This document shows, piece by piece, positions 2,704-49,178 of a DNA stretch of 64,000 nucleotides. Each line of letters opens with the position of its first letter. Position 1 is the first letter of the stretch. Position numbers and translations under genes: made by a program. The DNA lies in NCBI GenBank assembly GCA_965140415.1, contig OZ223209.1, positions 5,344,001-5,408,000 of the forward strand, in the 5' to 3' direction. Source of the stretch: Myxococcota bacterium. GTDB lineage: Bacteria > Myxococcota_A > SURF-8. The notes beneath the pieces are model-generated. The model saw only the letters and a program-made list of their open reading frames with translations, had not been told where the DNA came from and made no database searches.

Positions 2704-2706
2704 CCG

Positions 2707-5700: not shown

Positions 5701-5835
5701 TTGGAGAGATGCCGACAATACAGTGGCCAAATCAAGGCCTATGCCGAAGCCGTCATCAAAGGCACGGGGCAACCCGTGCGGGCATCATACATACATCTTC
5801 CGGTTTCAGGAATGATGGTGGAGATGGATATTTGA
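2707..5835 (+). CDS. AddA/RecB-like UvrD SF1 helicase with C-terminal nuclease
   Basis: Walker A SAGSGKT, TFTKKAA, VDEFQDT, GDQKQSIF, TIHKAKGLEW, LLYVAWTRARD. C-terminal GNADL...IIDHKS nuclease motif. Confidence 0.9.
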   Translation: MGTIDIISASAGSGKTYTLSQRLALALSSGETSPESVIAVTFTKKAAAELRERVRSYLIAEGKHDDAHRLLSSYIGTVDAICNRLVATFAFDLGIPPEPVLVEKEQQKATLSRILSQQVSPDQESDMLSLSSRLDLASWTDTVHDMIEFIRLNRLDGEALHQSEAKSVEGIQALFKAGKNNPDDLESRLLEAAYEWLSEISNLPKVTKGTQTKATALRRILGDFRNSQNPKWNLWPQIAYMAHPSQKMPKDGLNIFDPVKAAAEAIDGHPGLLADMLLMVQRLFAFAEQTSVHFANRKRRNGWLDYTDMEALALDLLELPRVRKYLEEHISLVLVDEFQDTNPLQLAIFLKLASIAKHSIWVGDQKQSIFGFRDTDPKLMDAVIEQVGKGRALDVLPHSWRSDKRLIDLTSEVFAEVFEPYGIPPERVRLSLPDERSQEAEIDAPVLEMWDLIETTNKSNTILALAAGIRNLFDRETLDIHDPRSKEIRRAGFGDVAVLCRTNDTCAEVAAVLKAWNIPVATPQGGLVSTLEARVLINGMRLVGDPRDSLALAELHRLLNHPTDEDAWFSSILSDMEAIKQHDPIHDLIEQSKQHGRSGALEAFDHVCHTLDIRSLCARWGDSSKRLANVEKLRALVVQYIQTGNNVKTASSLADYLSELAGHEGDEQGIPAGGDMVTVLTIHKAKGLEWPITILFELAKTYSADPWKLSVVDDRESININDPLGFRWIRCWPNPFANLRSNAFSVTTIAQRVDDSDVAKEAAKRQTYEELRLLYVAWTRARDRLILAENERSFFTGLLAPVASTLEDWKKQPEDEQKPLSETISIRQFAPTAPTEKEPAPDPMFKATRPQEHAPAYLQPSALMQSGLVGDVVSIGERITLRSHDVHMDHVGEAIHGFFAADRKGYSLKQRLDMANGLLERWRVGNALSAESVVAGSDNLYTWIDANWKDAKYRREWPLTYRNEQGTILRGNADLVLQTNEGFIIIDHKSFPGNREQALERCRQYSGQIKAYAEAVIKGTGQPVRASYIHLPVSGMMVEMDI

Positions 5836-5924
5836 CTATTTGTTCAGCTCAAGGTCCGCACCAATGAGATATAAGTCCTGTGTATGCCATTTTTGATGGG
5901 AAGATCATGCTTTCAATGTTGAAG

Positions 5925-7358
5925 TCAGGCTAACTTTTTCATCCAGCTTTCGATATCTTTCCAACCTTCAACTATTATTACATTTGTGGGTAGATCACTC
6001 CTCTTCTTGTTTTCTTCGTCGCTAAGATGGTCTTGAGGCTGGTTATAGGGGTGCGAAATTAGGAAAACTATATCACAGATAAATGATAGCTTGATCGCTT
6101 TCTGTAGATCATCCTCAACAAAGTATTTAATTTTTCGTCTCTTTGATAAAGTGAAGCGATTCATAATCTTGGTTCCTGTATGAGTTGTATAATCATTCCC
6201 GAATTCAATCTGCAATTTTCCGTAAGGGATACCATTCTTGTCGAGCCATCGTTTTGTGATACGATGTATTGGTTTTCGCTTTAAGTTTTGCAGAAACTCG
6301 ACTCTTCCTGGATTTCTAAAAAAGAAGCTAAGAATATTATACAAGAATAAAACAACTGGCGTACCAGCCCTTTTCGAGAAGGATGCGAGACACTGCTTAA
6401 GCTCATCTTTTGTTTCGCAATCTGGCCATGATCGATAGGTAAATATCTGTATGTCAATATGAAATACATTCTTGAACATGGAAAGAACACTTGCAGCACT
6501 TTCTATCTGTGGCATATCGACCCAATAATTCGGATCGTTGAATACACTTCTCTCCTCCGGTTTGGAAATATTAACTTGACTAGAATAGTTTACGGGCATT
6601 GTATCGAGTTTGTCTGGATTGATTTCTCTTTTGTACTTTTTCTCAAATATATTGCAGAAATGCTCCCTATGCTTGTTTAAAACGCCGTCAATGTCGACAC
6701 CTATAATATTTGACTTCGTATATTCATATTCCTTTCGCCAAGAACACCCAATGTAAAGTGCGAGGTGAAACAATAAGATAATTGGTATTAAGCATAATAT
6801 ATCAAAGGGATATGACTTAGCGTACATGTCTATTGTATTCTGAGACCAAACAGATTGGCAGGATAAGAACATTCGTATGAAAATGACAATAGCAATTGTA
6901 TTAAAGATTGAAAACAACAGAACTACTGAGAAAAAGAACCGCCATTCGAAGTAGTGAGGTTGAGAGGTGGTAACAGGTAGTTGACGTATACGATTCTTGT
7001 AATTTAAACCAAGTTCAGATTGGTCAAAAAAGTATTTCCTAACCCCATTGATCGCACGAGCATAGAGTAAGGCATCATACCTCATATAAATAACATATAT
7101 GAGCAGAGAGAGGCCAACCAAGAATAACGCCAAGAAAAGCAAAGCAATTGGGAACTGGTGTTTTATAAATATACTGGTTATTTCTTTTTTATTGAATAGT
7201 AGTGCTGCAGCTGGAAATGGTATAGACATTACCAGTATAAGATATCTGATAAACTGGCTTATCGAGTCTATGGATTTAAAATGAGCGTTGGCAAGATTCT
7301 GGTATTCAGCAAGAAGAAACTCGGGAAATTGATCTTTGCATTTTTGAACATCCATCAT
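5925..7358 (-). CDS. Membrane protein (about 4 TM) fused to a HAD/NT5C-like 5'(3')-nucleotidase domain
   Basis: Four hydrophobic segments in the first ~205 aa, followed by IIGVDIDGVL (HAD motif I), FTYR (motif II) and YFVEDD (motif IV). AT-rich. Confidence 0.7.
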   Translation of the reverse strand: MMDVQKCKDQFPEFLLAEYQNLANAHFKSIDSISQFIRYLILVMSIPFPAAALLFNKKEITSIFIKHQFPIALLFLALFLVGLSLLIYVIYMRYDALLYARAINGVRKYFFDQSELGLNYKNRIRQLPVTTSQPHYFEWRFFFSVVLLFSIFNTIAIVIFIRMFLSCQSVWSQNTIDMYAKSYPFDILCLIPIILLFHLALYIGCSWRKEYEYTKSNIIGVDIDGVLNKHREHFCNIFEKKYKREINPDKLDTMPVNYSSQVNISKPEERSVFNDPNYWVDMPQIESAASVLSMFKNVFHIDIQIFTYRSWPDCETKDELKQCLASFSKRAGTPVVLFLYNILSFFFRNPGRVEFLQNLKRKPIHRITKRWLDKNGIPYGKLQIEFGNDYTTHTGTKIMNRFTLSKRRKIKYFVEDDLQKAIKLSFICDIVFLISHPYNQPQDHLSDEENKKRSDLPTNVIIVEGWKDIESWMKKLA

Positions 7359-7568
7359 TGCCGAATCACCTCACAATTCTGGTAGCAGTATCAATGTAAC
7401 TTCAAAAACCGATTTTTCCCTATGTTCGTGTACATGTTCTCCCTTGTTCCATCTTCGATGCTGCCATAGTAAGTAGTAATTCTAGCCTCCGATACTATTG
7501 ACTGGGTTAGAGAATCAAGCTTTATTATACCATTCGTTTAAAAGGGAAAACTACGCAGTTCTATTGTT

Positions 7569-8960
7569 CTATTTTCCGTTTAGAATCCTTCGTTCCTTCT
7601 CGATACGCTCCGCTTCGATATAGTGCTCCAGCAATTTCTTGAATTTTGCTGAAGAGGTACGTTTGAAGTCGGATTCAGTGACCTTTCCTTCTTTATGGAT
7701 TTCAAAAAGGATATCCTTCTGAGGTGTTGATAACGAATAGTAAATCTTCAGCCAATCTGCGGCACCATTGTTTTCATGCAATCGCCTATTGATGATGTAT
7801 TCATCTGGCATATTCGCAATAGCAAGGAATTCTTTCTCGTTGCGGCCAAAAGCAGCTTCAAAGAATTCCAGCCTTGGAGAGACCATCCCTCTGGTTGCCA
7901 GTAGAATGCACTGAACACCACGAATAAGTTTACGATTCCAATTCTTCCCGACATAGCTTCTGTTTTTATGAGTAAGCGGGATATATTTCATCGGAAAAGA
8001 GTAAATTTTAGTTCCCAATTCTTCATTCAGTTCACAATTGATTCTAAGCCGCTCATAAAAGTCTTCAGGCTTGTCATTGTAATTATAAAGTATATAGTTT
8101 GAAAGATTCAGGATACCATATTGTGCCGCCATTCTGATTTTTGAAATGTAAAGCTCTTCCATTGAAATATGATCGAAAGCGATTCTCATGGGTTTGATGG
8201 CAATCTCAGCCAGCAAAGCCATTTTCTTTTCATCCAATAGGCGAGCATCAAGCCCTTGGTTGAAATCAACTTTCCTTAAACGGTTATTAAGGCGTGCGCC
8301 CTTCTCAAAGCCTAATGTTTTGATATCGTCGATGATTCTTGGAAAGAAGCGTGAAGCTAGAACGTTGTTGTCCAACAGAACCAAATCCTGTTTTTGACCA
8401 TAAACCTCCTCAATTCCTTTTACCTGTTTAAAAAGTGGGGAGTAATGGCGAAATATAGGCTCAATTTTATGAACCGCACAAAACTTGCAGCGATTAGGGC
8501 AGCCTCTCGTTGAATACGCAATGTAGCAGTCCTTCGTTGCATACTGATATTCAATAGAATCCAATATCTTGTAATCTGGAATCAGCCGATCTATGTTATT
8601 GGTATCTCCTTTGTCAAGCGCACCTTTCTTGTCGAGTAGACCACGAATGACCGTCACCCCGGTTTCTGATCTGATTTCTTCCGAAAGCAAGGTGGCCATT
8701 ACGCCACCGACGATCACGTTGCTTGGCGAAGATGTAGCCCTTTTATAATATTCAATGGTCCGGATTGTTTCTGACCAGAAGAATGTAAACAGAGTGCTTA
8801 TATAAATCCTATCCCAGATCTCTTCACGATAAGCAGCTTTACACCCCTTAACAAAGTGAACCTCGTCACCTCGCAATTTATGATAAGAGGATATTTTCAT
8901 CAGGCCAAGGGGAGGGTATTTATTCCGATAGCCGGGTTCAACAAGGAGGATTTTGGACAT
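7569..8960 (-). CDS. Radical SAM enzyme with N-terminal B12-binding-like domain
   Basis: TRGCPNRCKFC (CxxxCxxC). N-terminal KILLVEP..PPLGL and IVGGVMAT, typical of cobalamin-binding-domain radical SAMs. Also LLDNN and DFNQGLDAR. Confidence 0.85.
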   Translation of the reverse strand: MSKILLVEPGYRNKYPPLGLMKISSYHKLRGDEVHFVKGCKAAYREEIWDRIYISTLFTFFWSETIRTIEYYKRATSSPSNVIVGGVMATLLSEEIRSETGVTVIRGLLDKKGALDKGDTNNIDRLIPDYKILDSIEYQYATKDCYIAYSTRGCPNRCKFCAVHKIEPIFRHYSPLFKQVKGIEEVYGQKQDLVLLDNNVLASRFFPRIIDDIKTLGFEKGARLNNRLRKVDFNQGLDARLLDEKKMALLAEIAIKPMRIAFDHISMEELYISKIRMAAQYGILNLSNYILYNYNDKPEDFYERLRINCELNEELGTKIYSFPMKYIPLTHKNRSYVGKNWNRKLIRGVQCILLATRGMVSPRLEFFEAAFGRNEKEFLAIANMPDEYIINRRLHENNGAADWLKIYYSLSTPQKDILFEIHKEGKVTESDFKRTSSAKFKKLLEHYIEAERIEKERRILNGK

Positions 8961-8975
8961 AATTTAGAGTACCTA

Positions 8976-9419
8976 CTATTCTCCGGCTGTGTTGAAGAGA
9001 TAAGCGAGCAGAACCTTCGGGAGCTCATCTGAACAACTTCTATCAAGTCTCAGCTCGTTTCCGCTTTCAATGGTATAGTCAGCTAATATTTCTTCAAGGA
9101 GAATTCCCATGCCAGCGTTGGCGTATTCTTCAACTTTTGAAATGACCTCCTTATCATCGAGCACGGATGAATAGTTCATTTCTTCAGATTCGATAATGAT
9201 TGAATAATAGCTTGCGTATTCCTCTGGGGTGATGGTGCTTGACCAAAACCGGTCTTCACCTTGCTTTTGCAACGGTTTACGTTTTCCATGTCGAAAACCC
9301 AAACAGGCGCAAATGTAAAACAACTCATGAGCTTCCCTCACTGCAAAGTTTGACATCTCCTTGTACAGCGTCTTGTATTTTCGATCTGTGCGGACTCTGA
9401 TATCACCTGACATATTCAT
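8976..9419 (-). CDS. PbeD-like / dnd-associated small protein
   Basis: Start re-placed at ATG 9419 (GGAGG upstream, 1 nt after the ATPase stop), giving 147 aa. ELFYICACLG and VEEYANAG motifs resemble phosphorothioation-associated protein 4, and it sits after the SMC-like ATPase. Confidence 0.6.
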   Translation of the reverse strand: MNMSGDIRVRTDRKYKTLYKEMSNFAVREAHELFYICACLGFRHGKRKPLQKQGEDRFWSSTITPEEYASYYSIIIESEEMNYSSVLDDKEVISKVEEYANAGMGILLEEILADYTIESGNELRLDRSCSDELPKVLLAYLFNTAGE

Positions 9420-9420
9420 C

Positions 9421-11466
9421 TCACAACACCTCCGCTTCTTCGCGCAGCATACCTGTTGCCTGCGATGTCTCCAATTTTTCGATTTTCGTACTTCCGGGGC
9501 CACTGCCCTTTAATAAGTAGAACTTACCCCATTGACCAGTCCCCTTCAGAATGCCGGATTCATATTGACCGAACTCCGAATCTGTTGCCAGCAAAATCCA
9601 CTGGGTACACCATTCAGGAACTCTCTCAATCAAATTCTGTCTGTGATTCCTGGATAAGCGACCAAAAGGAGTATCCATGAACAAAGGCATTTCAAATATT
9701 TCTTTTCCTGCTGCGGCTTTAGCTAACGCAGCAATGAAAGCAATCGACATAATCTGTCTTTGTCCTGCTGAGATATTTGCCAAGAACGGTTTGTCCCAAC
9801 GATCATAGACCTGTATGCTATAATCAGAATCAACCCCGATCTTTTTCAGAGTTTGTCTGCCCTCATCATCAAGCAACTCGGAGAAATATTTTGTGGCATC
9901 CATCCCAATTCGGTCACGAGTCTCGCCAGTGAATTCTTCAAATATGGCCTCTAGTGCAGTGGTCGTATCATCTGCAAGTTTTGATCTTTTAACAAGGTCG
10001 TCTCGTATCCCTTCTTCCTTTTCCAACTCTTTTCGTTCTAATAAAAACTGTTCCCGAAGCTCTTTCAGTACGGATAATTCAGCCTTGAGAGTGTTCTGCT
10101 CATTTTCTAAATGCCCAATCCTCTTATCAATCCCCTGACGAGTAGCTTCCAGTTTTTCTGCATCTCGTCTTGCTGAATCACCAATTTTGCCCTGAAGGTC
10201 TTCAAGTTTCCGATAAGCAACCTGCAGGTCGTTTTTCTTCACTGCATATTTCTGCAGAAGCGACTGGGTCGTTCCTGCAATATCCGTGTAATGGCTTTTC
10301 ACAGTACTCAAGTATCGCCATAGGTTCAGCATGGAGTCCTCTACAACAACATCCGTAACCTTGTCACGCCATTGGAGGATTTTCTTGTGACCCGATGTTC
10401 CAGGCGAAATGTCCTGACCGCAAATACAGGTGCCATCATTTATTAGCCTGTCGATGAGGTCTTTCCTTATTTCGGATGGAATTTCATGCTTTTTTTTGCG
10501 CTTATCAATATCTCTGAAAACCTTTTCAACAGGCTTTCTCAATAGAAGAAGTGATGCTTTTCCTGACTGTACTTTCATTTCCGACAGGAGTTCTTTCAAC
10601 TCGCTATCGAGAATCTTGATCTCTTTTTCTTTGCTCTTTCTCTCCTTGAGTAGATCTTCAATGCCACGAATTTTTTCAAGCTCAGCATCTACTTTTTTCT
10701 TCTCTGCAGCGGCTAGCTGCAACTCTTCATCAATCTGATTAACCCTTTCATCAAGCTCAGTGCTACGATCCTCATTCTCCCTTATTTTCTTAATGATCTT
10801 GGCCATTTCACCAGTTGCCCTGGTCTCAATATCTTTATCTAAATCCCTTCTAAGGCGTTTCGTTGAGCGTTTAGCTGCTTCTAAGGTGTCTATATTGAGC
10901 AGTTTTCTGACACCCATTGAAATCTCTTTTTTCTGCTCTCGAGATGCCCTGGTTAGCCGTTCAATTTTTTCACCATCAAATAAAAAGTATTCTCGCAAGC
11001 CCCTATCAAGAATTGAGGATATATGATCAGAAACCTCATTAGGATTTCTTACTGTTGTAGAATTTCCATCATTGTCTTGGATGATAAGTTGAACACCATT
11101 ATCTTCTTCAGCAACAGTTCCTTCTTTATTCAACAAACCGAGTAAGGATCGTTCTATTTTATATGATCTTCCTTCATGCTGAAACGAAAGCTGCACACCT
11201 GCAATGACTGGTTTGCTATCAGCGGATTTTTCTTCCATTTCCGGATAATTCACCAGATACAGTTCTTTATCGTTGACCTGGTCATCCTGGCTTAGCTTCT
11301 TTTCACCGTACAAGCAAAATAATAGTGCTCGATAAAGACCGGTTTTCCCTCGTCCATTTTCTCCGAAAACAACGGTGACGTTACCTTCTTTTCCTGAAGA
11401 AAAATCTATTTCTTGAGTGCCGCGAAATTGCCGGAAATTTTTAAGTACCATATTCTGGAGGATCAT
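9421..11466 (-). CDS. SMC/Rad50-like ABC ATPase (PbeC/DndD-like)
   Basis: Walker A GENGRGKT, FLFDGE, long coiled coils, central CICG hook, signature ISAGQ, Walker B/D-loop FMDTPFGRL. Confidence 0.85.
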   Translation of the reverse strand: MILQNMVLKNFRQFRGTQEIDFSSGKEGNVTVVFGENGRGKTGLYRALLFCLYGEKKLSQDDQVNDKELYLVNYPEMEEKSADSKPVIAGVQLSFQHEGRSYKIERSLLGLLNKEGTVAEEDNGVQLIIQDNDGNSTTVRNPNEVSDHISSILDRGLREYFLFDGEKIERLTRASREQKKEISMGVRKLLNIDTLEAAKRSTKRLRRDLDKDIETRATGEMAKIIKKIRENEDRSTELDERVNQIDEELQLAAAEKKKVDAELEKIRGIEDLLKERKSKEKEIKILDSELKELLSEMKVQSGKASLLLLRKPVEKVFRDIDKRKKKHEIPSEIRKDLIDRLINDGTCICGQDISPGTSGHKKILQWRDKVTDVVVEDSMLNLWRYLSTVKSHYTDIAGTTQSLLQKYAVKKNDLQVAYRKLEDLQGKIGDSARRDAEKLEATRQGIDKRIGHLENEQNTLKAELSVLKELREQFLLERKELEKEEGIRDDLVKRSKLADDTTTALEAIFEEFTGETRDRIGMDATKYFSELLDDEGRQTLKKIGVDSDYSIQVYDRWDKPFLANISAGQRQIMSIAFIAALAKAAAGKEIFEMPLFMDTPFGRLSRNHRQNLIERVPEWCTQWILLATDSEFGQYESGILKGTGQWGKFYLLKGSGPGSTKIEKLETSQATGMLREEAEVL

Positions 11467-11636
11467 TGGGTTTCCTCCTTTTCCTTAACGATCTGTTTCA
11501 CTGCACCTTTTAATTGCTCAACAACAAATGTTTCTGGATTTGTCTCTGACAATTCAAGGGCACGCATGGCCAAAGCCCTGACATCTTCCGGGTATTCCAG
11601 AAGTTTCTCGAGAATCAATTTGTGAGTCTGTGACAT
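11463..11636 (-). CDS. Small 57-aa protein (PbeB-like position), absent from the ORF track
   Basis: Hand-translated MSQTHKLILEKLLEYPEDVRALAMRALELSETNPETFVVEQLKGAVKQIVKEKEETQ. AGGAG RBS, and ATGA overlap with the ATPase start. Confidence 0.75.
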   Translation of the reverse strand: MSQTHKLILEKLLEYPEDVRALAMRALELSETNPETFVVEQLKGAVKQIVKEKEETQ

Positions 11637-11645
11637 GAAAAACTC

Positions 11646-13796
11646 CTATTTACTGTATTCCTCAGTTTCCATCGCTTCTTTTTCTATCTTTTCCATTACC
11701 TCGTGATAGATATCCCAAGGCTTCATATGCAGCAAGTGAATCATCTCATAATCATTGACAATATCCCAAACAACATTTCTTGCCTGAAATTCATTGACCG
11801 AGGCCGATGCAAACTCTGCAAATCTTGGCATCTCACGCTTAAGCAGCCCAATGTCCGTTTCAGATTTATACTTTGCATTCTCTCGATCAGGCAAAACAAG
11901 AAAATCATACACTTCGGCCTGCAATTTCCCTTCATCTTTCCTGAGGATCCTTCCCCTGCGTTGAACGAATTCCTTAGGATTTGAGGTGCTTGCGAGGAAA
12001 TAAGCATAACGAGTTGACGGTATATCAACACCTTCATCTAGGCAATGTATGGCAACTAATACCTGAATATCGCCTTTTTCAAACTGCTTTAAAACCACCT
12101 CGCGCTGGTTCATCGTCACAGAATAAACAAATTCATGGCAACGCAAGCCTAGCAGAGCAATATTTGCCAAAACCTCTTTATGAGTACCTGGAGCGCAGTA
12201 AACAAGCGTATTATTCAGCTCTTCACCAGCGTCCTCAACTTCCGCCTTTTTTTGCTTGAGGTGGTCTATCAAAAGAGGGATTTTATTTTGAGCTTTAGAG
12301 ATAATATTTGCACGTTTGAGCAATTGCTTCTTGAGACGTTCCTTTTCTTCTGGTTCATTGTCGAGGTCGCGGTTCGCCAGATAAGCAATTTTCTGAGATA
12401 ATTCCTCGTACTCTTCTCTTTCGTCAGTGGTAAGGGAGGTGAGTATTGGGGTATATTTGTACGGGGTCAGATATGTTCCGATAGCTTGTTCTAATGAGAA
12501 CTCAAAGCAGACATCTGAAAAGTAATCCCAAAGAACATCAGTCCCTTCTTCGTCATACCAACGATGAGGAGTGGCGGATAAGCCAATTCGCATGTCGGCG
12601 TTGGGAGAAAGTCCTCGCTTTAGATGTCTGGATCCTAGACGATGAACTTCATCGACGATTAGCAAAAATTTATCCGATGGCAGTTCATCTAAGATAGACT
12701 GAAATTTATCTCCTGCCGCAGTGTGCTGTACGGCAAGAATGCAGATATTGGGGAGTACACCTGTTTTGAAATCTTGAATTCTTGATCTTGCCTCTACATA
12801 CCACTTGTTGTGGTTGCCACTGCATAGGATGGGATACATGCCAAAGCGTTCACAATTGTCTCTCCATTGATTTAATAAATGGAGATAAGGCACAAGGATT
12901 ACGACAGCAATTCTTTCTAACTTGCTTTGCCGATCCATCGCTGCAGATAGAGCAGTGAACGTCTTTCCCGTTCCCGTCGCCATCTCAAAAATGCCGCTAT
13001 AGTTGCTTTCCTCCCATTTGGAGATTGCCTCTTCTTGATAAGGTCGAAGTTCAATTTTCGCGCCACCTGTAATAGAAAGGGATTTTGAAGGCTTCTTGGT
13101 TTTATCGTAGTCTTTGTATGGTCGTTCAGTGCTTCGTAAATTTACAATCTCTTTTTCAATGGCATCAGGAATAGGAAGCACTTCAAACTGGCTATTGCCC
13201 TCTTTCCAAAGTTTCTGAAGGCGTTTTAGGTGTTGTTCTACATATGGTAATTGACCTTGATCCCACGATCTAAATACAGAGAAGGCTTCTCCATTAAGAG
13301 ACCCCTTTGTTGAGTCATTGAAGGAGCCATGGATTGCAACAACATCGTTCTGTTTGTCAATAAATACGCCAACTTTGTCATGATAGTCGCCCGATTGACC
13401 GGCTTTTCTTGGGATGGCGAATTTGAACTCCAGTACCCCATCGGCAACCATCCACGCAAGGGCATTCAAGGTATCTTTTGAAAGCGAATAACTTAGTTCT
13501 TTTACTTGCTGACGCAAAATTGCTTTAAGCGTATCATCTTGCTTTGCCGCATCACCTGTCTGTAATGCTTCCCAATCCTGTTGCTGCAATATCGGCGAGG
13601 TTACGATCCGTGCAGAACCTCCATTCTCAACAAGAGCTTGGATACCTTGACAAGCAGTGCGAAGCCACCCGGAAGTAAAATAGCCGACTCCTCGCCAGTA
13701 TTCTATTGACTCGCAAAGTAGGGGTGCCATTAGGTCCTTAACAAGGTCATAATCAGCACTGTCATAAACGGGATGGAGTTGCAGATCAGTCAGCAT
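11646..13796 (-). CDS. PLD-nuclease-domain SF2 helicase (PbeA-like)
   Basis: N-terminal GYFTS, YHDK...HGSFNDS (PLD HxK/GSxN). LRPYQ, MATGTGKT, DEVH, LSATP, EGVDIP, QRRGRILR. Confidence 0.85.
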   Translation of the reverse strand: MLTDLQLHPVYDSADYDLVKDLMAPLLCESIEYWRGVGYFTSGWLRTACQGIQALVENGGSARIVTSPILQQQDWEALQTGDAAKQDDTLKAILRQQVKELSYSLSKDTLNALAWMVADGVLEFKFAIPRKAGQSGDYHDKVGVFIDKQNDVVAIHGSFNDSTKGSLNGEAFSVFRSWDQGQLPYVEQHLKRLQKLWKEGNSQFEVLPIPDAIEKEIVNLRSTERPYKDYDKTKKPSKSLSITGGAKIELRPYQEEAISKWEESNYSGIFEMATGTGKTFTALSAAMDRQSKLERIAVVILVPYLHLLNQWRDNCERFGMYPILCSGNHNKWYVEARSRIQDFKTGVLPNICILAVQHTAAGDKFQSILDELPSDKFLLIVDEVHRLGSRHLKRGLSPNADMRIGLSATPHRWYDEEGTDVLWDYFSDVCFEFSLEQAIGTYLTPYKYTPILTSLTTDEREEYEELSQKIAYLANRDLDNEPEEKERLKKQLLKRANIISKAQNKIPLLIDHLKQKKAEVEDAGEELNNTLVYCAPGTHKEVLANIALLGLRCHEFVYSVTMNQREVVLKQFEKGDIQVLVAIHCLDEGVDIPSTRYAYFLASTSNPKEFVQRRGRILRKDEGKLQAEVYDFLVLPDRENAKYKSETDIGLLKREMPRFAEFASASVNEFQARNVVWDIVNDYEMIHLLHMKPWDIYHEVMEKIEKEAMETEEYSK

Positions 13797-16779
13797 AATT
13801 CAGCAACTCCTTCAAGATAATTTCGCGACCTCGGATTACCACTTTACTGTTATCTCCTAGCATACTCGGGGTTAAGTGCCTTTTAATAATCCTCTCATTA
13901 GCAAGCATTTCTTGGAATTCGGCTAGATTTGCCGCTCCGTCCCATTCTTTTTCAAGTATCATATGGACAAGGTCTTCTAGGCAAGAAAGAAACCCATTCT
14001 CTGAAGCAGGGACAAAAGCCTCACGGGTATTGCCGAGGAGCTTAAATTTTCCGTTCTTTTTGAGTAAATCCGAAATCATAAAAGGGGACCAATACAAGCC
14101 AGATGGAAGCTTTGGCAGCTTGGGAGATTCTGCGAGGAGAGATATTCGTCCGAAATGCCTTCCTGCCATTTTAGCTGTTTCATAATGCAGATAAGCCAAA
14201 TCTTCTAGTTCACTTTGCTTAAGGTCACTCCATTCAAGCGTATCCTTATGGATAAAACATCCTGCGTGATAGAAGAAAACATTTTCGTGATTTGCTACAT
14301 AATAGACTTGTTGTTCTTGATATTTTAGATTTCTTACAAAATAATCTTCAAGCTTCTCATAAGGACATGGCGAATTGGCCTTTCTTATATATTCGACAAT
14401 CAATTCCTGAATACCATGTCGAGTTTCACTCTCGGAAGCACCGGGCCTTTCGATTCTTGGGTAACGTTCAAGCTCAAGTGAACCATCATTGTAATATTGC
14501 AGCAATGAATATAGCATGTCTGAACAATTGATGCCGTAGGCCAAGCAAGTAACTTGTTTTTCTTTAAAGAGCTTTTCAACAGAGAAATGCTCCTCAGTCA
14601 GTAATAGATTCACGGCGTATCTAAGAATATTTTCAATGGCATCCTGATTTACCGAAATATTATCAATATGAGCTATTTTGTTGCGAGTAACGTAAATTGC
14701 ATTCGGAATTCTGTATATCGCTTGATCAAACTGGAACGGTTTTAAAAGCATTTTGTCAAGTGCGAATCGTCTTAGCTCCTTTACTGTTTTCGGCTCACCT
14801 GTTTCCAGTAGAACATTTTCCAAAGCAACCGAAGTAGGCATATATTCTATAAAGGTTTCTCTTAAGTAAATGTAAGGGGTTTTAGGAAAAACGAGCTTGG
14901 GGTTTTTGTTTTGCTTTAAACAGGTATAAAGCGCCAATTCCGCAAACATGCCTGCTTGATTGCAACGCTTTTCAAAATGACGATATGCACCGTATGCAGA
15001 CACAAATGGGATATCATCCTGAAGTATTTTGATAAGCCATTCTTCAACATCATGAATCAGAGAGATCGGAACAATTGCGTTTTCTTTGTGAATGAACGTT
15101 CCCCTCTCCCAAAGCAAAGAATTTTCGCTACGGTCAAGCATGGCATGAACATTTCGCTCTTCAACATCGGGACGCCATTTCCTTAAATGCTCCGTGATCT
15201 CAGAGAAATGAGCATGTTTCCCTATAGATAACAATACTTCTTCTACCGCATCGATAGACCTGCCATGTTTAAGTTTCCACAACCCCCTTGAATACAGCCG
15301 ATATTTATGGATTTTCATCGAAAAGTTGCATTTTCCGATAGCATGAAATAGCAAAGCATCTGAAACGTTTACAATTCCAAGCTCTTGATCTTTCTGTATG
15401 TATTGGATAAATGCTTCCTTAAAAGCCTTCAGGCTTACACTCCACAATTCATTATTGTACCACTCATCTGCAATGGTTGGAGCTAGCTCTTCAATCTTTC
15501 TAGAGAAGGCTTTCAGATCAGGCATCAAAGTATTTTTAACTACGCTCCTCTTAGAGACTCTAAGATCTCTTTTTTTACTGATGTTCAATTCTAAGAAAAA
15601 CTCCAACAAACGTGTTGCTTTTGCCAGATAGTCTCCATCTTGACCAACACAAAAAAGCCTCTCAGTAAGCTCCTCAACGCTAATCATTCCACCTAACTGC
15701 TCTACGATGGATTCTGCTTTTTCAATCAGAGGAATCAATCTGGCTTGCTGAGTTTGCAATGAGGCTTTTTTTTCTATTGAAACTTCAATTTGACGAACTC
15801 GTTCTCTGGTAAGTTCACATTCCATCCCCGCTTGTTCCAACGTAACAGGTTCAGCCCCTAGCATTCCTTTACGAAGCATGAAAACTTTTGCCTGCTTATC
15901 TGAACGAGTCAAACTTCGTATCCATTTGGATAGCCAAGGGAAAGGATTTTCCACGTCAATCAATAACTCTTCAGACACATCAGCACTGGAACCCCGTTCA
16001 CTCAAACCTAAAAAACAGGGAGCTAGCAGTATTTTTCCCGTGGTCAATGGCTCTGATTTTGATAAAAGCAGATTTATTTGTGAAACCAGCCCGTTTTGAA
16101 TGGCATGAATCTCGTCAACTGTTTTTCTTCCACAATTCTTTGTCTCAAATAGGCGATTCCTTTCCAGTCTCATAAATTCAGAAAGTGAATCAACGCCAGA
16201 ATTGGTCACCACATATTTTGCTCGTTTACTTAACGAAGCCACTACAGCTTTGAAAAGTCGGCCTCCTGAATCGGGAATTTGCTCCATTACTATTCCAAAA
16301 TCACATGGAGAAGTGCTGGCAACATTGGGGCTCTTGCTGTTCTCCTCCCCGCCTGCTAAATGAGAAGCCAACTCTTTTTGCAATCTTTCAATTTCAAAAA
16401 CAGTCGTGCGACCGCAGTTCCTGCATCGAAACAATTCACCCGAAGATAAGGCTAAAAAACAATCTAAACTGGACACGCCAAGATCATCTAGCACACGGTT
16501 GGCGCGTACGCTTAGCAATTCTCTAAGGTTCTGAGTTCTAATATTAAACTTATTGGCTTGAGTACCTAATTCTGTTTTAAAGCCCTGTTTTAGCAGTGAA
16601 GCTTGAAATTCTTCAATTTCTCTGACAGTTTTAACACCACAGTTTCTCACTTGAAGAAGGTCATCTCTGGACAATTTAATAAATGATTCAATATCGGTCA
16701 CACCAATAGCGTCAAGAACACCTTTGGCTCTAACTGAAAGCGGAATATTTAGGATTTTAGAATTTTCATTCATCATCAT
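13786..16779 (-). CDS. Protein with 3 RNAP alpha-CTD-like repeats, a sigma70 region-4 HTH and wHTH-rich C-terminus
   Basis: Three repeats of LS(V/K)RA...NCG..TV.EI, then TLEQAG..ELTRERVRQIE. Overlaps the helicase start by 11 nt. Confidence 0.75.
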   Translation of the reverse strand: MMMNENSKILNIPLSVRAKGVLDAIGVTDIESFIKLSRDDLLQVRNCGVKTVREIEEFQASLLKQGFKTELGTQANKFNIRTQNLRELLSVRANRVLDDLGVSSLDCFLALSSGELFRCRNCGRTTVFEIERLQKELASHLAGGEENSKSPNVASTSPCDFGIVMEQIPDSGGRLFKAVVASLSKRAKYVVTNSGVDSLSEFMRLERNRLFETKNCGRKTVDEIHAIQNGLVSQINLLLSKSEPLTTGKILLAPCFLGLSERGSSADVSEELLIDVENPFPWLSKWIRSLTRSDKQAKVFMLRKGMLGAEPVTLEQAGMECELTRERVRQIEVSIEKKASLQTQQARLIPLIEKAESIVEQLGGMISVEELTERLFCVGQDGDYLAKATRLLEFFLELNISKKRDLRVSKRSVVKNTLMPDLKAFSRKIEELAPTIADEWYNNELWSVSLKAFKEAFIQYIQKDQELGIVNVSDALLFHAIGKCNFSMKIHKYRLYSRGLWKLKHGRSIDAVEEVLLSIGKHAHFSEITEHLRKWRPDVEERNVHAMLDRSENSLLWERGTFIHKENAIVPISLIHDVEEWLIKILQDDIPFVSAYGAYRHFEKRCNQAGMFAELALYTCLKQNKNPKLVFPKTPYIYLRETFIEYMPTSVALENVLLETGEPKTVKELRRFALDKMLLKPFQFDQAIYRIPNAIYVTRNKIAHIDNISVNQDAIENILRYAVNLLLTEEHFSVEKLFKEKQVTCLAYGINCSDMLYSLLQYYNDGSLELERYPRIERPGASESETRHGIQELIVEYIRKANSPCPYEKLEDYFVRNLKYQEQQVYYVANHENVFFYHAGCFIHKDTLEWSDLKQSELEDLAYLHYETAKMAGRHFGRISLLAESPKLPKLPSGLYWSPFMISDLLKKNGKFKLLGNTREAFVPASENGFLSCLEDLVHMILEKEWDGAANLAEFQEMLANERIIKRHLTPSMLGDNSKVVIRGREIILKELLNYAD

Positions 16780-16817: not shown

Positions 16818-17051
16818 CTAATTAAAAAAAATAGCCTCACTGGGTTTAATATTCCCAACGGAAACTTGATGTTCGATAAAGGAGTTTAGTTGCCGCTTTG
16901 CAAGTTTTGATGGATTGACCTTTCCATTTTCCCAACGATTTACAGTTCCGAAGCTCACCCCCAATTCTCTTGCGAGATCTTCTTGGCTTATACCAAGTGC
17001 TTTTCTAATACGCTGTATGGCAATTTTGTAATTAAAACCCTTAGATACCAT
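16818..17051 (-). CDS. XRE-family HTH regulator
   Basis: IRKALGISQEDLARELGVSFGTVNRWENG. Start placed at ATG 17051 behind GGAG. Confidence 0.85.
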   Translation of the reverse strand: MVSKGFNYKIAIQRIRKALGISQEDLARELGVSFGTVNRWENGKVNPSKLAKRQLNSFIEHQVSVGNIKPSEAIFFN

Positions 17052-17092
17052 TTCCCGCTCTCCGTTTTCAATTACAGTCCTACTCGGCATCT

Positions 17093-19444: not shown

Positions 19445-20491
19445 TCAGACTTTCTCATACTTTGCCAGTGCATTTCGCATACGACCTGCTACATATTTGC
19501 GGAAGGCTTTCGGAGTGATAGCTTCGGCATGTTCACCCATCGAAAGCACCCACTCACCGATTTCCTGAAACCCTCTCACCCGCAGGCTGATCAACATACT
19601 GCCGTCTCGCTTATATGAGAGGGACTGGCTGTGATGCCAGAAACGTTCGCGGGCATAGGGGGCGAAGACTGGATCGATGCGGACTTTGACCGTACGAAGC
19701 TTTCCGTCTGGCCAGATGGCAAAGGCATCAGAAAAATAATCCTCAGCGGAAAAGCCCGTCGGATAATCGAACATCTCAAGATCCTGACAACAGCGCGCAT
19801 CTTGAATTCTGTCTAACGCTAATAGGATACGCCGCTCCGTCTTCTTCCAGTCGCCTTCGACGACATCCGCGATAAAGTACATTCCATTTCGATGCAGCGC
19901 TGCGCCAAGCAGATTTACTCGAAGATAGCGGGCGGGCTTGTTCAAAGCCTTCTGGGCGTGCGACAAATACGTAAGGTCGACCGGCTTTTCCGTAAGCAGA
20001 CCTTCCAGCATTTGAGCGAGCCGCTTCTGAAGCTCTTCGTTACGGCGATAATCTTTGATTCCGGCTGACACGACGTGAATCTTTTTCTCCAGACGTTTCA
20101 ACCGTAGCTTTTCCCCTGGATTGAGAGATTCCCGGAACTGGTCGAGGATCGGCTCCACTTCGGTAGCGAAATGGTGACCGGAAAGAAAACCCGTAACACG
20201 AGCGCCGACCGATACCGCCAGTATCTGCCAGGGGCTTATCTTCCATCGCTTGGAAGATCGATTCAGGAAATAGGACACGCCAAAGCTATCGTCTTCCTCA
20301 GCTATCAGCCGTTCTTGTAGTACATCTTTCAAGATTGCCAGATCGCGTTCCAATGTGCGGCGGCTGATATTAAAGGTTTTCGCTTCTTCTTTTGAGCAGA
20401 GTTTCCGCCCAAGAAGCAGCATATCGTACAGCATCAGAAGGCGTTGACCTTGGGGATATTTGCCTTTGGGTTTCTTGCGCGGATTTGACAT
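19445..20491 (-). CDS. WYL-domain transcriptional regulator (wHTH-WYL-WCX)
   Basis: N-terminal FNISRRTLERDL HTH, MYFIA and LALDRI (WYL domain), ERFWHHSQ and WVLSMGEHAE (WCX). Confidence 0.9.
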   Translation of the reverse strand: MSNPRKKPKGKYPQGQRLLMLYDMLLLGRKLCSKEEAKTFNISRRTLERDLAILKDVLQERLIAEEDDSFGVSYFLNRSSKRWKISPWQILAVSVGARVTGFLSGHHFATEVEPILDQFRESLNPGEKLRLKRLEKKIHVVSAGIKDYRRNEELQKRLAQMLEGLLTEKPVDLTYLSHAQKALNKPARYLRVNLLGAALHRNGMYFIADVVEGDWKKTERRILLALDRIQDARCCQDLEMFDYPTGFSAEDYFSDAFAIWPDGKLRTVKVRIDPVFAPYARERFWHHSQSLSYKRDGSMLISLRVRGFQEIGEWVLSMGEHAEAITPKAFRKYVAGRMRNALAKYEKV

Positions 20492-31752: not shown

Positions 31753-31821
31753 CGCGTTTCCTTGTTTTTCGGAACTTCCGAAAGTCGTAAATACTGATAT
31801 TCAGCCGCTATGGACCGGGAT

Positions 31822-43012: not shown

Positions 43013-43061
43013 CATTTGAATGGCCGATGTTTTAAGGCGTTAATCCAGAAAGAGGATTCTC

Positions 43062-44657: not shown

Positions 44658-44751
44658 GCATTCTTTAAAGTGAGGTCTATTTCCGTGGGAAGTGGGTGAG
44701 ATTGGATATTTGGCTAATGGATATTTTAATTTGGAAGTAAGGCGAGAAATC

Positions 44752-44770
44752 TCCGCGCCGAAGGCGCGGA
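44752..44770. terminator. GC hairpin
   Basis: TCCGCGCC-GAA-GGCGCGGA. Confidence 0.4.
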
Positions 44771-44810
44771 CGCTCATAAAATCAATTTACGCTGAGTCAA
44801 GGAGGCGTTC

Positions 44811-49106: not shown

Positions 49107-49121
49107 TCTTAATGTTATCGC

Positions 49122-49141
49122 CGGGGAGGCAAACCTCCCCG
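49122..49141 (+). terminator. Hairpin after MYXO-CTERM gene
   Basis: CGGGGAGG-CAAA-CCTCCCCG. Confidence 0.5.
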
Positions 49142-49178
49142 AGCGTTCTTAAAGCAAAAAAGAAAACTGGACATAGCG

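Follow-up and report, generated by a model that had tools for sequence, protein, structure and literature searches.

The available portions of Xiong et al. 2019 (PMC6459918) and of a later reappraisal (PMC10853773) describe PbeABCD of Haloterrigena jeotgali and the CxC ABC-ATPase-DndE systems, in which genes for an HKD-SF2 helicase, a small acidic protein, a CxC ABC ATPase and a DndE-like protein follow one another on mobile islands. The former counts 165 PbeAC without a modification gene nearby, and the latter allows a suicide mode without a self-mark for such systems; as far as these portions go, both points count against the need for a self-mark. The locus analysed here has the same four-gene order and also lies on a mobile island. 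Compared with the published systems as described there, it has no DndCDEA, cytosine methylase or MTaX1 partner, and it adds a radical SAM gene after pbeD and a gene for a 997-residue protein (g997) before pbeA. We found no mention of a radical SAM or g997-type partner in the available text of these two papers, and a literature search found no description of a Pbe-linked radical SAM enzyme.

Within the window (the whole stretch of 64,000 nucleotides analysed), a low-GC island at 5.9-17.1 kb has a GC content of 0.37-0.44, compared with 0.50-0.63 across most of the remaining sequence, and carries all of the cassette genes. A sequence-only reading had described tightly coupled genes for a PLD-helicase, a 57-aa protein, a CxC ATPase and a 147-aa protein, with a B12-type radical SAM gene 15 nt further on. 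All five genes were found where that reading had placed them, the last one starting 15 nt past the pbeD stop, and the unit proved longer than it had assumed, with the g997 gene overlapping pbeA by 11 nt. The unit is preceded, 38 nt before the g997 gene, by an HTH gene and followed, 210 nt after the radical SAM gene, by a membrane/NT5C-like gene. We describe the locus as a defence cassette of known Pbe type, acquired by horizontal transfer and made up of seven or eight genes, comprising a questionable HTH gene, g997, pbeABCD, the radical SAM gene and possibly the membrane/NT5C-like gene (Table 1).

Table 1. Genes of the cassette and its immediate neighbours, in order of transcription (positions in the window).
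Feature	Position	Strand	Product and evidence
HTH gene	16818..17090	-	90-aa Xre-type HTH protein; Pfam HTH_3 9.1e-14
g997	13786..16779	-	997 aa, multi-headed DNA-binding protein; Pfam RNA_pol_A_CTD 7e-19, Sigma70_r4 4.4e-5
pbeA	11646..13796	-	716 aa, HKD (phospholipase-D-type) nuclease fused to SF2 helicase; PADLOC PbeA 6.3e-225
pbeB-like gene	11463..11636	-	57-aa acidic small protein; position between pbeA and pbeC
pbeC	9421..11466	-	681 aa, CxC ABC ATPase; PADLOC PbeC 1e-172
pbeD	8976..9419	-	147-aa DndE-cognate small protein; PADLOC PbeD 2.9e-6
radical SAM gene	7569..8960	-	463 aa; CxxxCxxC and AF2 fold
membrane/NT5C-like gene	5925..7358	-	477 aa; Pfam NT5C 6.1e-4, below cut-off

PADLOC models recognise PbeA, PbeC and PbeD, confirming the pbeABCD identity proposed earlier. 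PbeA carries HxK at residue 139, GSxN at 157, Walker A at 275 and DEVH at 382, and matches Pfam ResIII (9e-23) and Helicase_C (1e-12); its TIGR04095 score of 468 bits is under the cut-off of 600. PbeC also scores under the cut-off of the DndD model TIGR03185 (157.5 against 245.85 bits); its CxC spans residues 347-349, with C347, C349 and the Walker A residues invariant in 19 sequences. The longest pbeD ORF begins at a GTG at 9503; a start at the ATG at 9419, 1 nt past the end of pbeC, gives the length stated before. The family matches of PbeD are weak (TIGR04062 6.1e-6, below its cut-off, besides the PADLOC match in Table 1), and an FWS motif is invariant in its family alignment of 19 sequences. 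The pbeB-like protein (pI 5.1) has no family match among the Pfam, PADLOC and TIGR models; by tblastn its ORF matches 21 of the 32 close-clade loci, with identities of 35-63%.

The CxxxCxxC cysteines of the radical SAM enzyme (C154, C158 and C161) are the only invariant ones among 52 sequences. Its Pfam scores for Radical_SAM (22.3 bits) and B12-binding (16.8 bits) are both under the cut-offs, and a profile search of PDB sequences gave a best match of only E 0.82. The AF2 model (pLDDT 95.2) shows an N-terminal cobalamin-binding-like Rossmann domain, a barrel and a helical C-terminal region, so that the predicted fold confirms both Radical_SAM and B12-binding-like domains; the earlier label "B12-type" accordingly stands as a statement about predicted fold, its Pfam score being too low. 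The nearest solved folds by VIA-align are AprD4 (6fd2_A, Z 19.4), MgmA (9ccb_A, Z 18.6), MiaB (7mjv_A, Z 16.5) and TsrM (Z 14.6), and the substrates of such folds are an aminoglycoside, protein, tRNA and small molecules, none of them DNA. Nor could a DNA-binding domain be recognised in it; both points speak against DNA as its substrate. In distant Pbe-linked relatives the B12-binding Pfam score is above the cut-off (45.5, 37.8 and 37.6 bits), and the window enzyme perhaps uses cobalamin too. Two cobalamin riboswitches are present in the host genome; CobS was not found there, so cobalamin would need to be imported.

As had been read from the window, no dnd gene or DNA methyltransferase was detected in its 38 scanned ORFs (12, plus 26 of at least 100 aa within 20.4-64 kb) at Pfam E≤1e-5. 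The possibility that dnd genes elsewhere in the genome account for Pbe activity was also searched: in the host genome, a single 5.98-Mb contig rated 93.7% complete, no DndC, DndB, C5 or N4/N6 (PF01555) methylase was found, and the sole DndD-like gene is pbeC itself. Eight genes with an N6_Mtase domain lie elsewhere in the genome, which makes a distant methylase partner possible; the nearest, about 18 kb off, encodes a self-contained type IIG enzyme. In 23 loci, the flanking ORFs of 150 aa or more (122 in all) include no DNA methylase, DndA, DndC or DndE.

The linkage between the radical SAM gene and pbeAC homologues, for which the sequence-only reading had proposed a census, is recurrent. Pbe genes occur in 22 of the best 80 of 532 genome loci encoding the enzyme, a proportion biased by the ranking on likeness to the window protein, and their order is the same in 21 of the 22. 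These loci belong to Thermodesulfobacteriota, Planctomycetota, Lentisphaerota, Bacteroidota, Actinomycetota, Bacillota and two archaeal MAGs. When loci were instead chosen by PbeC (the best 80 of 104 confirmed loci, ranked and biased likewise, with many contigs in both lists being short MAG or metagenome pieces), pbeD was followed by the radical SAM gene in all 20 close-clade loci that had nearly the whole of pbeC and 660 nt or more of DNA past it; 16 of these loci are distinct once duplicates are removed, and the flanks of the metagenome loci in this clade were identified by BLAST alone. On the enzyme tree, 20 of the 22 Pbe-linked rows fall in one clade (SH-aLRT 99). Three loci (L015, L075 and L078) sit outside it, so that the Pbe label needs at least four changes. 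Taken over the tree and both sets of loci, the link to pbeAC homologues is recurrent and goes back to no fewer than three to four independent joins.

A distant branch of the radical SAM family (hhalign probability 99.8%, E 1.7e-29) comes after pbeD in further Pbe clades. In 46 more distant PbeC loci, again from the best 80 of 104 and with 71 of 113 candidate ORFs covered by the partner scan, a related radical SAM gene is present in 16 and Dnd genes (DndB, PAPS_reduct DndC, DndD, DndE, Aminotran_5) in 10; no locus has both, the two partners being mutually exclusive. Neither partner is seen in five distant Pbe loci (L130, L138, L148, L161 and L163) that extend 940 nt or more downstream. The recurrent link, together with a host devoid of DndC and DndB, supports on comparative-genomic grounds the earlier proposal that Pbe with a radical SAM enzyme is a new subtype.

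The partnership is not exclusive, which qualifies the earlier view of the enzyme as a Pbe partner. The same family also ends operons of ParB/SNF2, DrmAB-like, DndB-like/GHKL, HNH and BglII-like nuclease type, with overlapping counts among the best 80 of 532 loci of 27 for ParB-like/SNF2 (DpdE/ZorD-like), 19 for DndB/DpdB-like, 14 for GHKL ATPase, 7 for DrmA-DrmB and 3 for HNH. RefSeq-annotated plasmids carry DGQHR, radical SAM and ATP-binding protein genes in a row. In one locus within the Pbe-linked enzyme clade (L012), a BglII-like nuclease gene 2 nt upstream of the enzyme replaces PbeABCD, and the same pair is found in L051; the two contigs, of 4.4 kb and 3.7 kb, hold no methylase. A type II-like nuclease next to this enzyme, on contigs free of methylases, has the layout of a restriction-modification pair. 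The enzyme thus appears, from its gene neighbourhoods, to be a portable module shared by several restriction-like systems; outside Pbe it accompanies machines that track along DNA and whose modification logic is known.

The g997 protein consists of three RNA-polymerase-alpha-CTD-like helix-hairpin-helix modules and a sigma-70 region-4 HTH, followed by about nine tandem winged-helix-like units (AF2 model pLDDT 86.2, pTM 0.56). VIA-align matches include the winged helix 3eyy_B (Z 9.9; 62 aa, rmsd 1.5), SelB 1lva_A (Z 8.6; 185 aa), sigma 7vpd_F (Z 7.3) and alpha-CTD 1z3e_B (Z 7.3). Its gene belongs to the operon: of the 17 genome loci in which pbeA is whole and preceded by further sequence, 16 have g997 ahead of pbeA. 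The gene is also present in Dnd-linked Pbe loci and is the least conserved of the cassette (median 32% identity). The HTH protein is a possible cassette regulator of uncertain membership, with no homologue by tblastn in the 80 genome loci (E≤1e-5) and unrelated small HTH-size ORFs in its place in other loci. The downstream neighbour combines a multi-pass membrane N-terminal half with an NT5C/HAD-like C-terminal half; the closest Atlas cluster has a score of 0.96, and 14% of its members carry NT5C. Homologues, often of the N-terminal half only, adjoin the radical SAM gene in 5 of 80 genome loci and pbeA in L152 and L153, making it an occasional companion and at most a putative member.

Of the two functions suggested by the sequence-only reading, a different self-mark seems to fit these gene contexts better than an antiviral nucleotide. 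We give about an even chance to the reading that the enzyme is a portable DNA self-marking enzyme standing in place of a methyltransferase. Speaking for it are the invariable company in the close clade, the recurrence across phyla and the repeated joins, the exclusion of Dnd genes, the lack of another marker nearby, the exchangeable restriction partners, the enzyme's high conservation and basic pI (9.2), and a fold closest to cobalamin-type radical SAM enzymes in a host with cobalamin riboswitches. PbeABCD would then be the restriction-type half of the cassette, with the PbeA nuclease-helicase and its small regulator, and with the CxC ABC ATPase and its DndE-like partner scanning DNA. The radical SAM enzyme would fill the slot held in other Pbe systems by DndCDEA sulfur-marking genes or cytosine methylases, using a single [4Fe-4S] cluster, SAM and perhaps cobalamin to place a covalent non-canonical mark on host DNA, most plausibly by radical methylation or alkylation of a carbon beyond the reach of ordinary methyltransferases. 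PbeC-PbeD and g997 may guide it to DNA sites, and PbeA would attack DNA lacking the mark.

An unlikely alternative is that the enzyme is an effector or repair enzyme on nucleic acid, damaging or altering invading DNA after detection by PbeABCD or repairing host lesions made by the system. This would suit its constant company of DNA-tracking and nuclease modules, its basic pI of 9.2 and a weak fold match (4fhc, Foldseek E 1.0e-3, VIA-align Z 8.4) to spore photoproduct lyase, a DNA-acting radical SAM enzyme. However, the partner systems already own nucleases (HKD, BglII-like, HNH, NERD), the BglII-like nucleases with this sole partner would leave self unprotected, and the finding that 0 of 26 partner-bearing distant loci combine radical SAM and Dnd genes is predicted by a replacement marker rather than an extra effector. 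About as doubtful is a viperin-like role, in which the enzyme makes an antiviral small molecule, such as a modified nucleotide blocking phage replication, that the NT5C-like membrane protein processes or exports. The recurrence of that gene beside the enzyme hints at nucleotide chemistry, and distant relatives of the enzyme are present in phage genomes. Nevertheless, in most of the five loci conservation is limited to the membrane half, nucleotide kinases and the like do not recur, no PADLOC model (a set that would include prokaryotic viperins) matches the enzyme at E≤0.01, viperin 5vsl_A covers only the barrel (Z 8.5, against 18-19 for two-domain enzymes), and the exclusion of Dnd genes is left unexplained.

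We consider it improbable that the enzyme modifies a system protein or peptide, for example the PbeB-like protein or PbeD, as a maturase or switch. Peptides are substrates of many radical SAM enzymes, MgmA, among the top two fold matches, is a protein side-chain methylase, and small ORFs are frequent in these operons (pbeB here, ORFs of 135 aa and 91 aa elsewhere). Against this, Pfam recognised no SPASM/twitch or peptide-recognition domain, only three cysteines are invariant, and no single small protein is common to the Pbe, ParB/SNF2, DrmAB, BglII and HNH contexts, yet the enzyme is 41-77% identical across them. Finally, defence islands do gather unrelated genes and 4 of 80 loci show the enzyme without a recognised partner (two with less than 900 nt upstream), but an unrelated passenger is highly improbable and already contradicted by the census, given the conserved order and median 9-nt gap after pbeD (19 loci), the invariable presence in informative close-clade loci, the repeated joins, and a conservation that is the highest in the cassette (median 60% identity, above PbeC in 32/32 loci).

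Among known systems, Ophion is likewise a defence system dependent on a radical SAM enzyme; its three genes (radical SAM enzyme, PHP phosphatase, phosphoribosyltransferase) include no Pbe, ParB, helicase or nuclease partner, and it is set apart here by gene content. The two-domain architecture is that of the cobalamin-type (class B-like) enzymes MgmA (9ccb), TsrM (6wte), TokK, CysS and OxsB, and of AprD4 (6fd2), which to our knowledge does not use cobalamin; the window enzyme is only 10-17% identical to these, its C-terminal helical region (residues ~395-463) is barely covered by the matches, and none of them acts on DNA. The Dpd 7-deazaguanine modification-restriction system comprises DpdA/B/C and DpdD-K, according to the available text of PMC10164549. 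Sister contexts of the enzyme resemble it in a DpdB-like ParB-family protein (PADLOC DpdB 2.7e-36), a DpdE/ZorD-like SNF2 helicase and a two-part logic of marking module and helicase/nuclease module; they differ in having no DpdA transglycosylase or preQ0 genes, and the partner in the window is Pbe. The DndCDE phosphorothioation complex differs in that no cysteine desulfurase is linked to the window cassette, so sulfur insertion is not implied. DndC, DndD and DndE form one complex, and here too an iron-sulfur enzyme accompanies an ABC ATPase of DndD type and a small protein of DndE type: the radical SAM gene adjoins the PbeC-PbeD pair as dndC adjoins dndD and dndE.

Between 5.9 and 17.1 kb, the window carries a run of minus-strand genes with a GC content of 0.37-0.44, against 0.50-0.63 for most other parts of the window. 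This run contains a pbeABCD-like cassette directly followed by a radical SAM gene (see the table below). The sequence-only reading had described pbeA, a 57-codon ORF, pbeC, a 147-aa pbeD and, 15 nt further on, the radical SAM gene, and this gene description is accurate. The unit stands for the five genes listed; its upstream extent was drawn too short, leaving out the g997 gene, which codes for a predicted 997-aa multi-headed DNA-binding protein and overlaps pbeA, and the HTH gene. PbeA has HxK (139), GSxN (157), Walker A (275) and DEVH (382) motifs, corresponding to the fusion of an HKD nuclease domain with an SF2 helicase. In PbeC, C347 and C349 of the characteristic CxC at 347-349 are invariant in a 19-sequence alignment, and the score of 157.5 bits is below the DndD equivalog cut-off of 245.85. 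Family matches of PbeD are weak (PADLOC PbeD 2.9e-6; TIGR04062 26.4 bits for a cut-off of 74.25), and it aligns within a conserved family of 19 members. The 57-aa pbeB-like product matches no family in the Pfam, PADLOC or NCBIfam scans, and no family model exists for comparison; its homologues were found by tblastn in 21 of 32 close-clade loci with 35-63% identity, as for the small, fast-evolving PbeB. In homologous Pbe loci, the median spacing is 9 nt from pbeD to the radical SAM gene (19 loci), -4 nt from pbeC to pbeD and -8 nt from g997 to pbeA. The borders of the island are not delimited, since there are no tRNAs in the window, the predicted promoters (28 sites at 5.7-17.5 kb, 25.9 expected) and terminators (11, 10.2 expected) are about as many as expected, and the direct repeats are short and chance-like.

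Genes of the Pbe island and its neighbours, in window coordinates
Feature	Position	Strand	Remarks
AddB-like PD-(D/E)XK protein, 876 aa	73-2703	+	ahead of the island
UvrD/AddA-like helicase-nuclease, 1042 aa	2707-5835	+	directly ahead of the island; GajB-like PADLOC matches
g477, 477 aa	5925-7358	-	210-nt gap downstream of the radical SAM gene; membrane N-terminal half (multi-pass), weak NT5C/HAD 5'-nucleotidase-like C-terminal half
radical SAM gene, 463 aa	7569-8960	-	begins 15 nt past pbeD
pbeD, 147 aa	ATG at 9419	-	one base past the pbeC stop; position and size fit a DndE-cognate role
pbeC, 681 aa	9421-11466	-	PADLOC PbeC 1e-172
pbeB-like acidic ORF, 57 codons	11463-11636	-	between pbeA and pbeC
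pbeA, 716 aa	11646-13796	-	PADLOC PbeA 6.3e-225, residues 2-674; Pfam ResIII and Helicase_C
g997 gene, 997 aa	13786-16779	-	11-nt overlap with pbeA
Xre-type HTH gene	16818-17090	-	38 nt upstream of g997
682-aa protein	17297-19345	-	PDDEXK_13 (2.4e-75) and REase-ARP domains
WYL/WCX-type regulator	19445-20491	-	PADLOC WYL 9.3e-19; adjoins the 682-aa protein
very large Lcl_C-repeat genes (1526, 1310 aa), several Kelch/beta-propeller proteins (up to 1431 aa)	27172-35754 and 41141-52679	- and +, respectively	

Around the island, the 682-aa and WYL genes, of higher GC, are probably a separate defence pair adjoining it, and the AddB/AddA-like pair is either the housekeeping AddAB or a defence pair. 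The Lcl_C and Kelch genes are unrelated to the cassette finding.

The 463-aa radical SAM protein (hereafter the enzyme) scores 22.3 bits against Pfam Radical_SAM, under the cut-off of 29.5, which is exceeded by relatives from homologous loci (48.0 bits for L169 and 47.3 bits for L060, the L numbers denoting loci of the two censuses presented below). NCBIfam gives a weak BchE match and nothing else, and the best match of a profile search among PDB sequences has an E-value of 0.82. The cysteines of its CxxxCxxC motif (C154, C158 and C161) are the sole invariant ones across a 52-sequence alignment, so that a single cluster is expected. Using VIA-align, the AlphaFold model of the enzyme (pLDDT 95.2, pTM 0.90) aligns with AprD4 (6fd2_A, Z 19.4, 347 aa aligned, rmsd 3.5), MgmA (9ccb_A, Z 18.6, 315 aa aligned, residues 3-392), MiaB (7mjv_A, Z 16.5), RimO (15.9), TsrM (14.6), and OxsB, CysS and TokK (12-13). 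Foldseek concurs, the barrel matching many radical SAM structures. The CxxxCxxC motif lies in a predicted partial TIM barrel, which places the enzyme in the radical SAM superfamily, and the model is nearest in fold to enzymes made of two domains, of which the N-terminal one is cobalamin-binding-like; this N-terminal feature of class B enzymes is found at the fold level only. Residues 1-117 align with corrinoid proteins with Z of 8.3-8.8. The label "B12-type" given in the sequence-only reading is thus justified as a statement on the fold; the Pfam B12-binding score of the enzyme (16.8 bits) is below the cut-off, which is passed by distant Pbe-linked relatives. The host genome has two cobalamin riboswitches, and CobS was not found in it.

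A profile search against 1.84 billion representatives shows that the enzyme belongs to a large family: it yields 3248 proteins at E<=1e-3, a number that falls to 1784 at 1e-10 and to 514 at 1e-30 (the latter counted as clusters at 50% identity). A word-based search gave 7983 matches, the best 120 of which, the window's own protein aside, come from many phyla and are 57-77% identical. Distant, shorter relatives, aligning at 25-33% identity with approximately residues 13-263 or 1-349, are also present in phage and archaeal virus genomes, including Bacteroides phage LoVEphage (L089, 4974-5891), where the gene is flanked by a PAPS reductase gene on one side and Dam methylase genes on the other, and Marinitoga camini virus 1 (L088, 5001-6083). 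These relatives could reflect a phage-side use of the same chemistry.

Scanning one genome per species, we obtained 532 loci with a relative of the enzyme and kept the best 80, in which ORFs were called and clustered and the cluster representatives annotated. A recognisable partner is present in 74 of these best 80 of 532 loci, in context categories that overlap: an operon of ParB-like, 135-aa, SNF2 (DpdE/ZorD-like) and ParB-like genes (27 loci), Pbe genes (22), a DndB/DpdB-like protein (19), a GHKL ATPase (14), DrmA-DrmB with NERD and UvrD-like helicases (7), a homologue of g477, the membrane/NT5C-like protein encoded downstream of the enzyme (5), an HNH nuclease (3), a BglII-like nuclease (2) and a PD-lambda-5A-like protein (2). 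Four loci have no recognised partner, two of them with less than 900 nt upstream, and in two others (L046, L077) the enzyme ORF was missed by the ORF selection. The set includes the duplicates L026/L027, L038/L039 and L069/L070. PbeA/PbeC lie directly upstream of the enzyme, in the window's order, in 21 of the 22 Pbe loci and downstream in one (L078); PbeD was found in 20 of the 22 by tblastn with the window's PbeD as query. In 14 RefSeq-annotated plasmid records (Rhizobium, Mesorhizobium, Novosphingobium and others), a DGQHR domain protein, a radical SAM protein and an ATP-binding protein are encoded consecutively.

Several loci combine these elements. L075 from Bacillota (1687-15272) encodes g997, pbeA, pbeC, pbeD, a long 677-aa radical SAM protein, a GHKL ATPase and a DndB-like protein, all in one direction. 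In L078 (359-4993), two TOTE conflict-system genes (TBP-TOTE and S1CSD-TOTE) adjoin a ParB/SNF2-radical SAM operon and a Pbe cassette, which is followed by a sigma-70-type gene. Homologues of g477, often the membrane half alone, are found beside the enzyme in L003, L030, L032, L034 and L078, and beside pbeA in L152/L153. One 52.9-kb contig contains L038 and L039, two 17.6-kb stretches that are 100% identical and each include an operon of DndB-like, metallo-beta-lactamase and radical SAM genes; the repeat may be a true duplication or may have arisen in assembly.

A second census, based on a PbeC alignment, confirmed 104 metagenome loci and retained the best 80; like the first, it is a sample ranked by similarity and consisting mostly of short contigs. 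Among the best 80 of 104, 34 loci have a close PbeC, sharing 37% identity or more with that of the window. All 20 of those with a near-complete pbeC and at least 660 nt beyond it encode pbeD and then the enzyme, and 16 of these 20 are new once duplicates are removed; of the other close loci, 11 end within 104 nt past the pbeC match and three are a pbeC fragment alone. Together with the 22 Pbe loci among the best 80 of 532 enzyme loci, these 20 of 20 informative loci bear out the recurrent link between radical SAM gene and pbeAC on which the sequence-only reading depended. The remaining 46 of the best 80 of 104 loci have a more distant PbeC, and in 16 of them a radical SAM gene of the same broad family adjoins the cassette: nine directly after pbeD at 26-32% identity, L134 at 44%, L147/152/153 at 38% with a GHKL gene, L141 and L154 upstream of pbeA, and L142 with a DndB-like gene. 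An hhalign comparison confirms the kinship of these distant enzymes (probability 99.8%, E 1.7e-29, 337 columns). Another 10 of the 46 carry Dnd genes (DndB, PAPS_reduct-type DndC, DndD, DndE, class V aminotransferase), and radical SAM and Dnd genes occur together in none of the 46. Fifteen end less than 800 nt from pbeC, and five (L130, L138, L148, L161, L163) have neither a radical SAM nor a Dnd partner. The domain scan of the distant loci covered 71 of 113 candidate ORFs, leaving aside those already labelled PbeC/DndD-like and some outlying ones. A phylum-wide search found PbeC in 5 of 401 genomes, including the host, with the other four only 24-26% identical, and in none of five same-family genomes; this census is too sparse to be usable.

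Candidates for another marker were sought in the flanks and in the host genome. In 23 genome loci (21 of Pbe type, a duplicate being removed, plus L012 and L054), none of the 122 flanking ORFs with a length of 150 aa or more contains a DNA methylase, DndA, DndC or DndE domain; the flanks hold integrases, transposases and housekeeping genes. The absence of dnd genes and of a DNA methyltransferase from the window, noted from the sequence, is confirmed by the window scans. It extends, for dnd genes, to the host genome (one contig, rated 93.7% complete), which has no DndC (TIGR03183) and no DndB (PF14072), pbeC being its sole DndD-like gene, so that dnd genes elsewhere do not account for Pbe activity. 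Since Pbe without dnd is already known in the accessible part of PMC6459918, the missing DndCDEA coupling excludes the phosphorothioation-dependent subtype, not the family. The host genome also has no C5 methylase and no PF01555 methylase. It has eight genes with an N6_Mtase domain, all elsewhere; the nearest (L177, G000:C1:5331579-5334896) encodes a full-length 1105-aa type IIG restriction-methyltransferase fusion (PADLOC 9e-133) and lies about 18 kb from the Pbe cassette and about 9 kb ahead of the window start, and the window may be part of a larger defence island.

In a quick IQ-TREE phylogeny of 75 enzyme sequences, one clade (SH-aLRT 99) groups 20 of the 22 Pbe-linked rows, including the window's. 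L015, L075 and L078 fall outside this main clade, and explaining the Pbe label on the tree takes at least four changes. Inside the Pbe-linked clade, L012 lacks PbeABCD and instead has a BglII-like nuclease upstream of the enzyme, at a distance of 2 nt; it keeps both a 129-aa protein resembling the first of the alpha-CTD modules in g997 and a small, divergently transcribed ORF that clusters with one upstream of g997 in L003. The nuclease-enzyme pair is repeated in L051 (coordinates 1881-4425 in L012 and 194-2416 in L051). The two predicted nucleases (Pfam Endonuc-BglII 7.5e-11), at 41% identity to each other, have in common an acidic motif for which BstYI gives a weak alignment (E 0.34); no methylase is present on these short contigs of 4.4 and 3.7 kb. 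Such a swap of PbeABCD for a type II-like nuclease, with the enzyme kept, is as expected if the enzyme is the protective half.

Over 32 close-clade loci, duplicates included, the enzyme is the best conserved component, with a median identity to the window's protein of 60%, compared to 53% for PbeA, 49% for PbeD, 46% for PbeC and PbeB, and 32% for g997; it is more conserved than PbeC in all 32. The g997 model (pLDDT 86.2, pTM 0.56) displays three helix-hairpin-helix modules (Pfam RNA_pol_A_CTD 7e-19; 1z3e_B, Z 7.3), a sigma region 4 HTH (7vpd_F, Z 7.3, 26% identity) and about nine winged-helix-like units (3eyy_B, Z 9.9, residues 507-569; SelB 1lva_A, Z 8.6, 185 residues). These Z values are middling by the tool's scale and thus give fold names, nothing beyond, and Foldseek finds no match to the model at E<=1e-3. 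A g997 homologue is likewise found ahead of pbeA in Dnd-linked loci (L115, L119, L123, L126, L130, L131, L168), which makes g997 a general Pbe accessory rather than a companion of the enzyme only. Its role may be that of a site-reading subunit.

The most economical reading, to which we give an even chance on genomic grounds, is a restriction-modification-like system in which the enzyme writes a putative self-mark. It rests on the cassette anatomy, the coupling of the genes, their recurrence, the independent joins, the exclusion with Dnd and the lack of dnd genes in the genome. The mark would be written by radical chemistry, for example by methylating an unactivated carbon of a base or sugar, and cobalamin might be involved. 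The new subtype proposed in the sequence-only reading is supported by comparative genomics, and the self-marking function proposed with it is plausible. Counting against a self-mark, the closest solved folds act on substrates other than DNA, and no DNA-binding domain is recognised by Pfam in the enzyme, including its long forms (532-704 aa), which beyond the radical SAM and B12 models match no Pfam family at E<=0.05. The host genome has other adenine methylases, both censuses are ranked by similarity on mostly short contigs, and, from the available portions of the two papers, marker-less Pbe is known (PMC6459918) and a suicide mode has been proposed (PMC10853773).

An effector or repair enzyme acting on nucleic acid is unlikely, though the best placed of the other readings. 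Close behind it, and ranked low, is an antiviral small-molecule synthase of the viperin kind: no PADLOC family, presumably including the pVip models, matches the enzyme at E<=0.01, and 5vsl_A aligns with the barrel alone (Z 8.5). Also ranked low is a protein or peptide modifier of the peptide-maturase type, which we consider a little more doubtful still. With the enzyme following pbeD at all informative close loci, a mere passenger gene is highly improbable.

The self-marking reading also has a wider form, which we hold tentatively and at somewhat less than an even chance. The enzyme family would then be a new class of DNA-modifying enzyme, an exchangeable "M" half explaining part of the "solitary" PbeABCD. 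It would serve at least five unrelated modules, namely PbeABCD, ParB/SNF2 Dpd-like operons, DrmAB DISARM-like operons, HNH nucleases and BglII-like nucleases. There is a real chance that the cassette contains a new kind of DNA-modifying enzyme. If so, it could provide a new base or backbone mark and matching mark-sensitive nucleases, which are useful as tools. Because several helicase/nuclease systems share the enzyme, a single biochemical finding would serve to annotate a number of defence-type operon architectures together.

The CxC systems were reportedly first described in an earlier ABC-ATPase classification paper from the Aravind group. In the literature searched, whose figures and supplements lie outside the search, the enzyme was not found described with Pbe, DndB/DGQHR, DISARM or ParB/SNF2 genes; such neighbours may appear in Supplementary Data 4 of PMC6459918 and in Data S1 of PMC10853773. 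The accessible text of the ProPhylo paper (PMC3226654) and of Makarova et al. 2013 (PMC3632139) ties no radical SAM to these genes, and that of PMC10853773 uses the term just in discussing DndC. Other radical SAM contexts appear in the consulted parts of reports on Ophion (10.1101/2025.09.30.679545) and of a ParA survey (10.64898/2026.10.19.760177). As partners of the CxC systems, the same portion of PMC10853773 gives an HKD-helicase, a small protein, cytosine methylases and MTaX1. Within the part of Xiong et al. 2019 (PMC6459918) available here, 233 of 553 PbeAC occur with dndCD and 320 are solitary, 155 of these near methylases and 165 with nothing. The marks known for Pbe systems are sulfur and cytosine methylation, and roughly a third of the systems (165/553) lack a known marker; a radical SAM enzyme as marker, if true, would explain some of these orphan Pbe and indicate a DNA modification of unknown chemistry.
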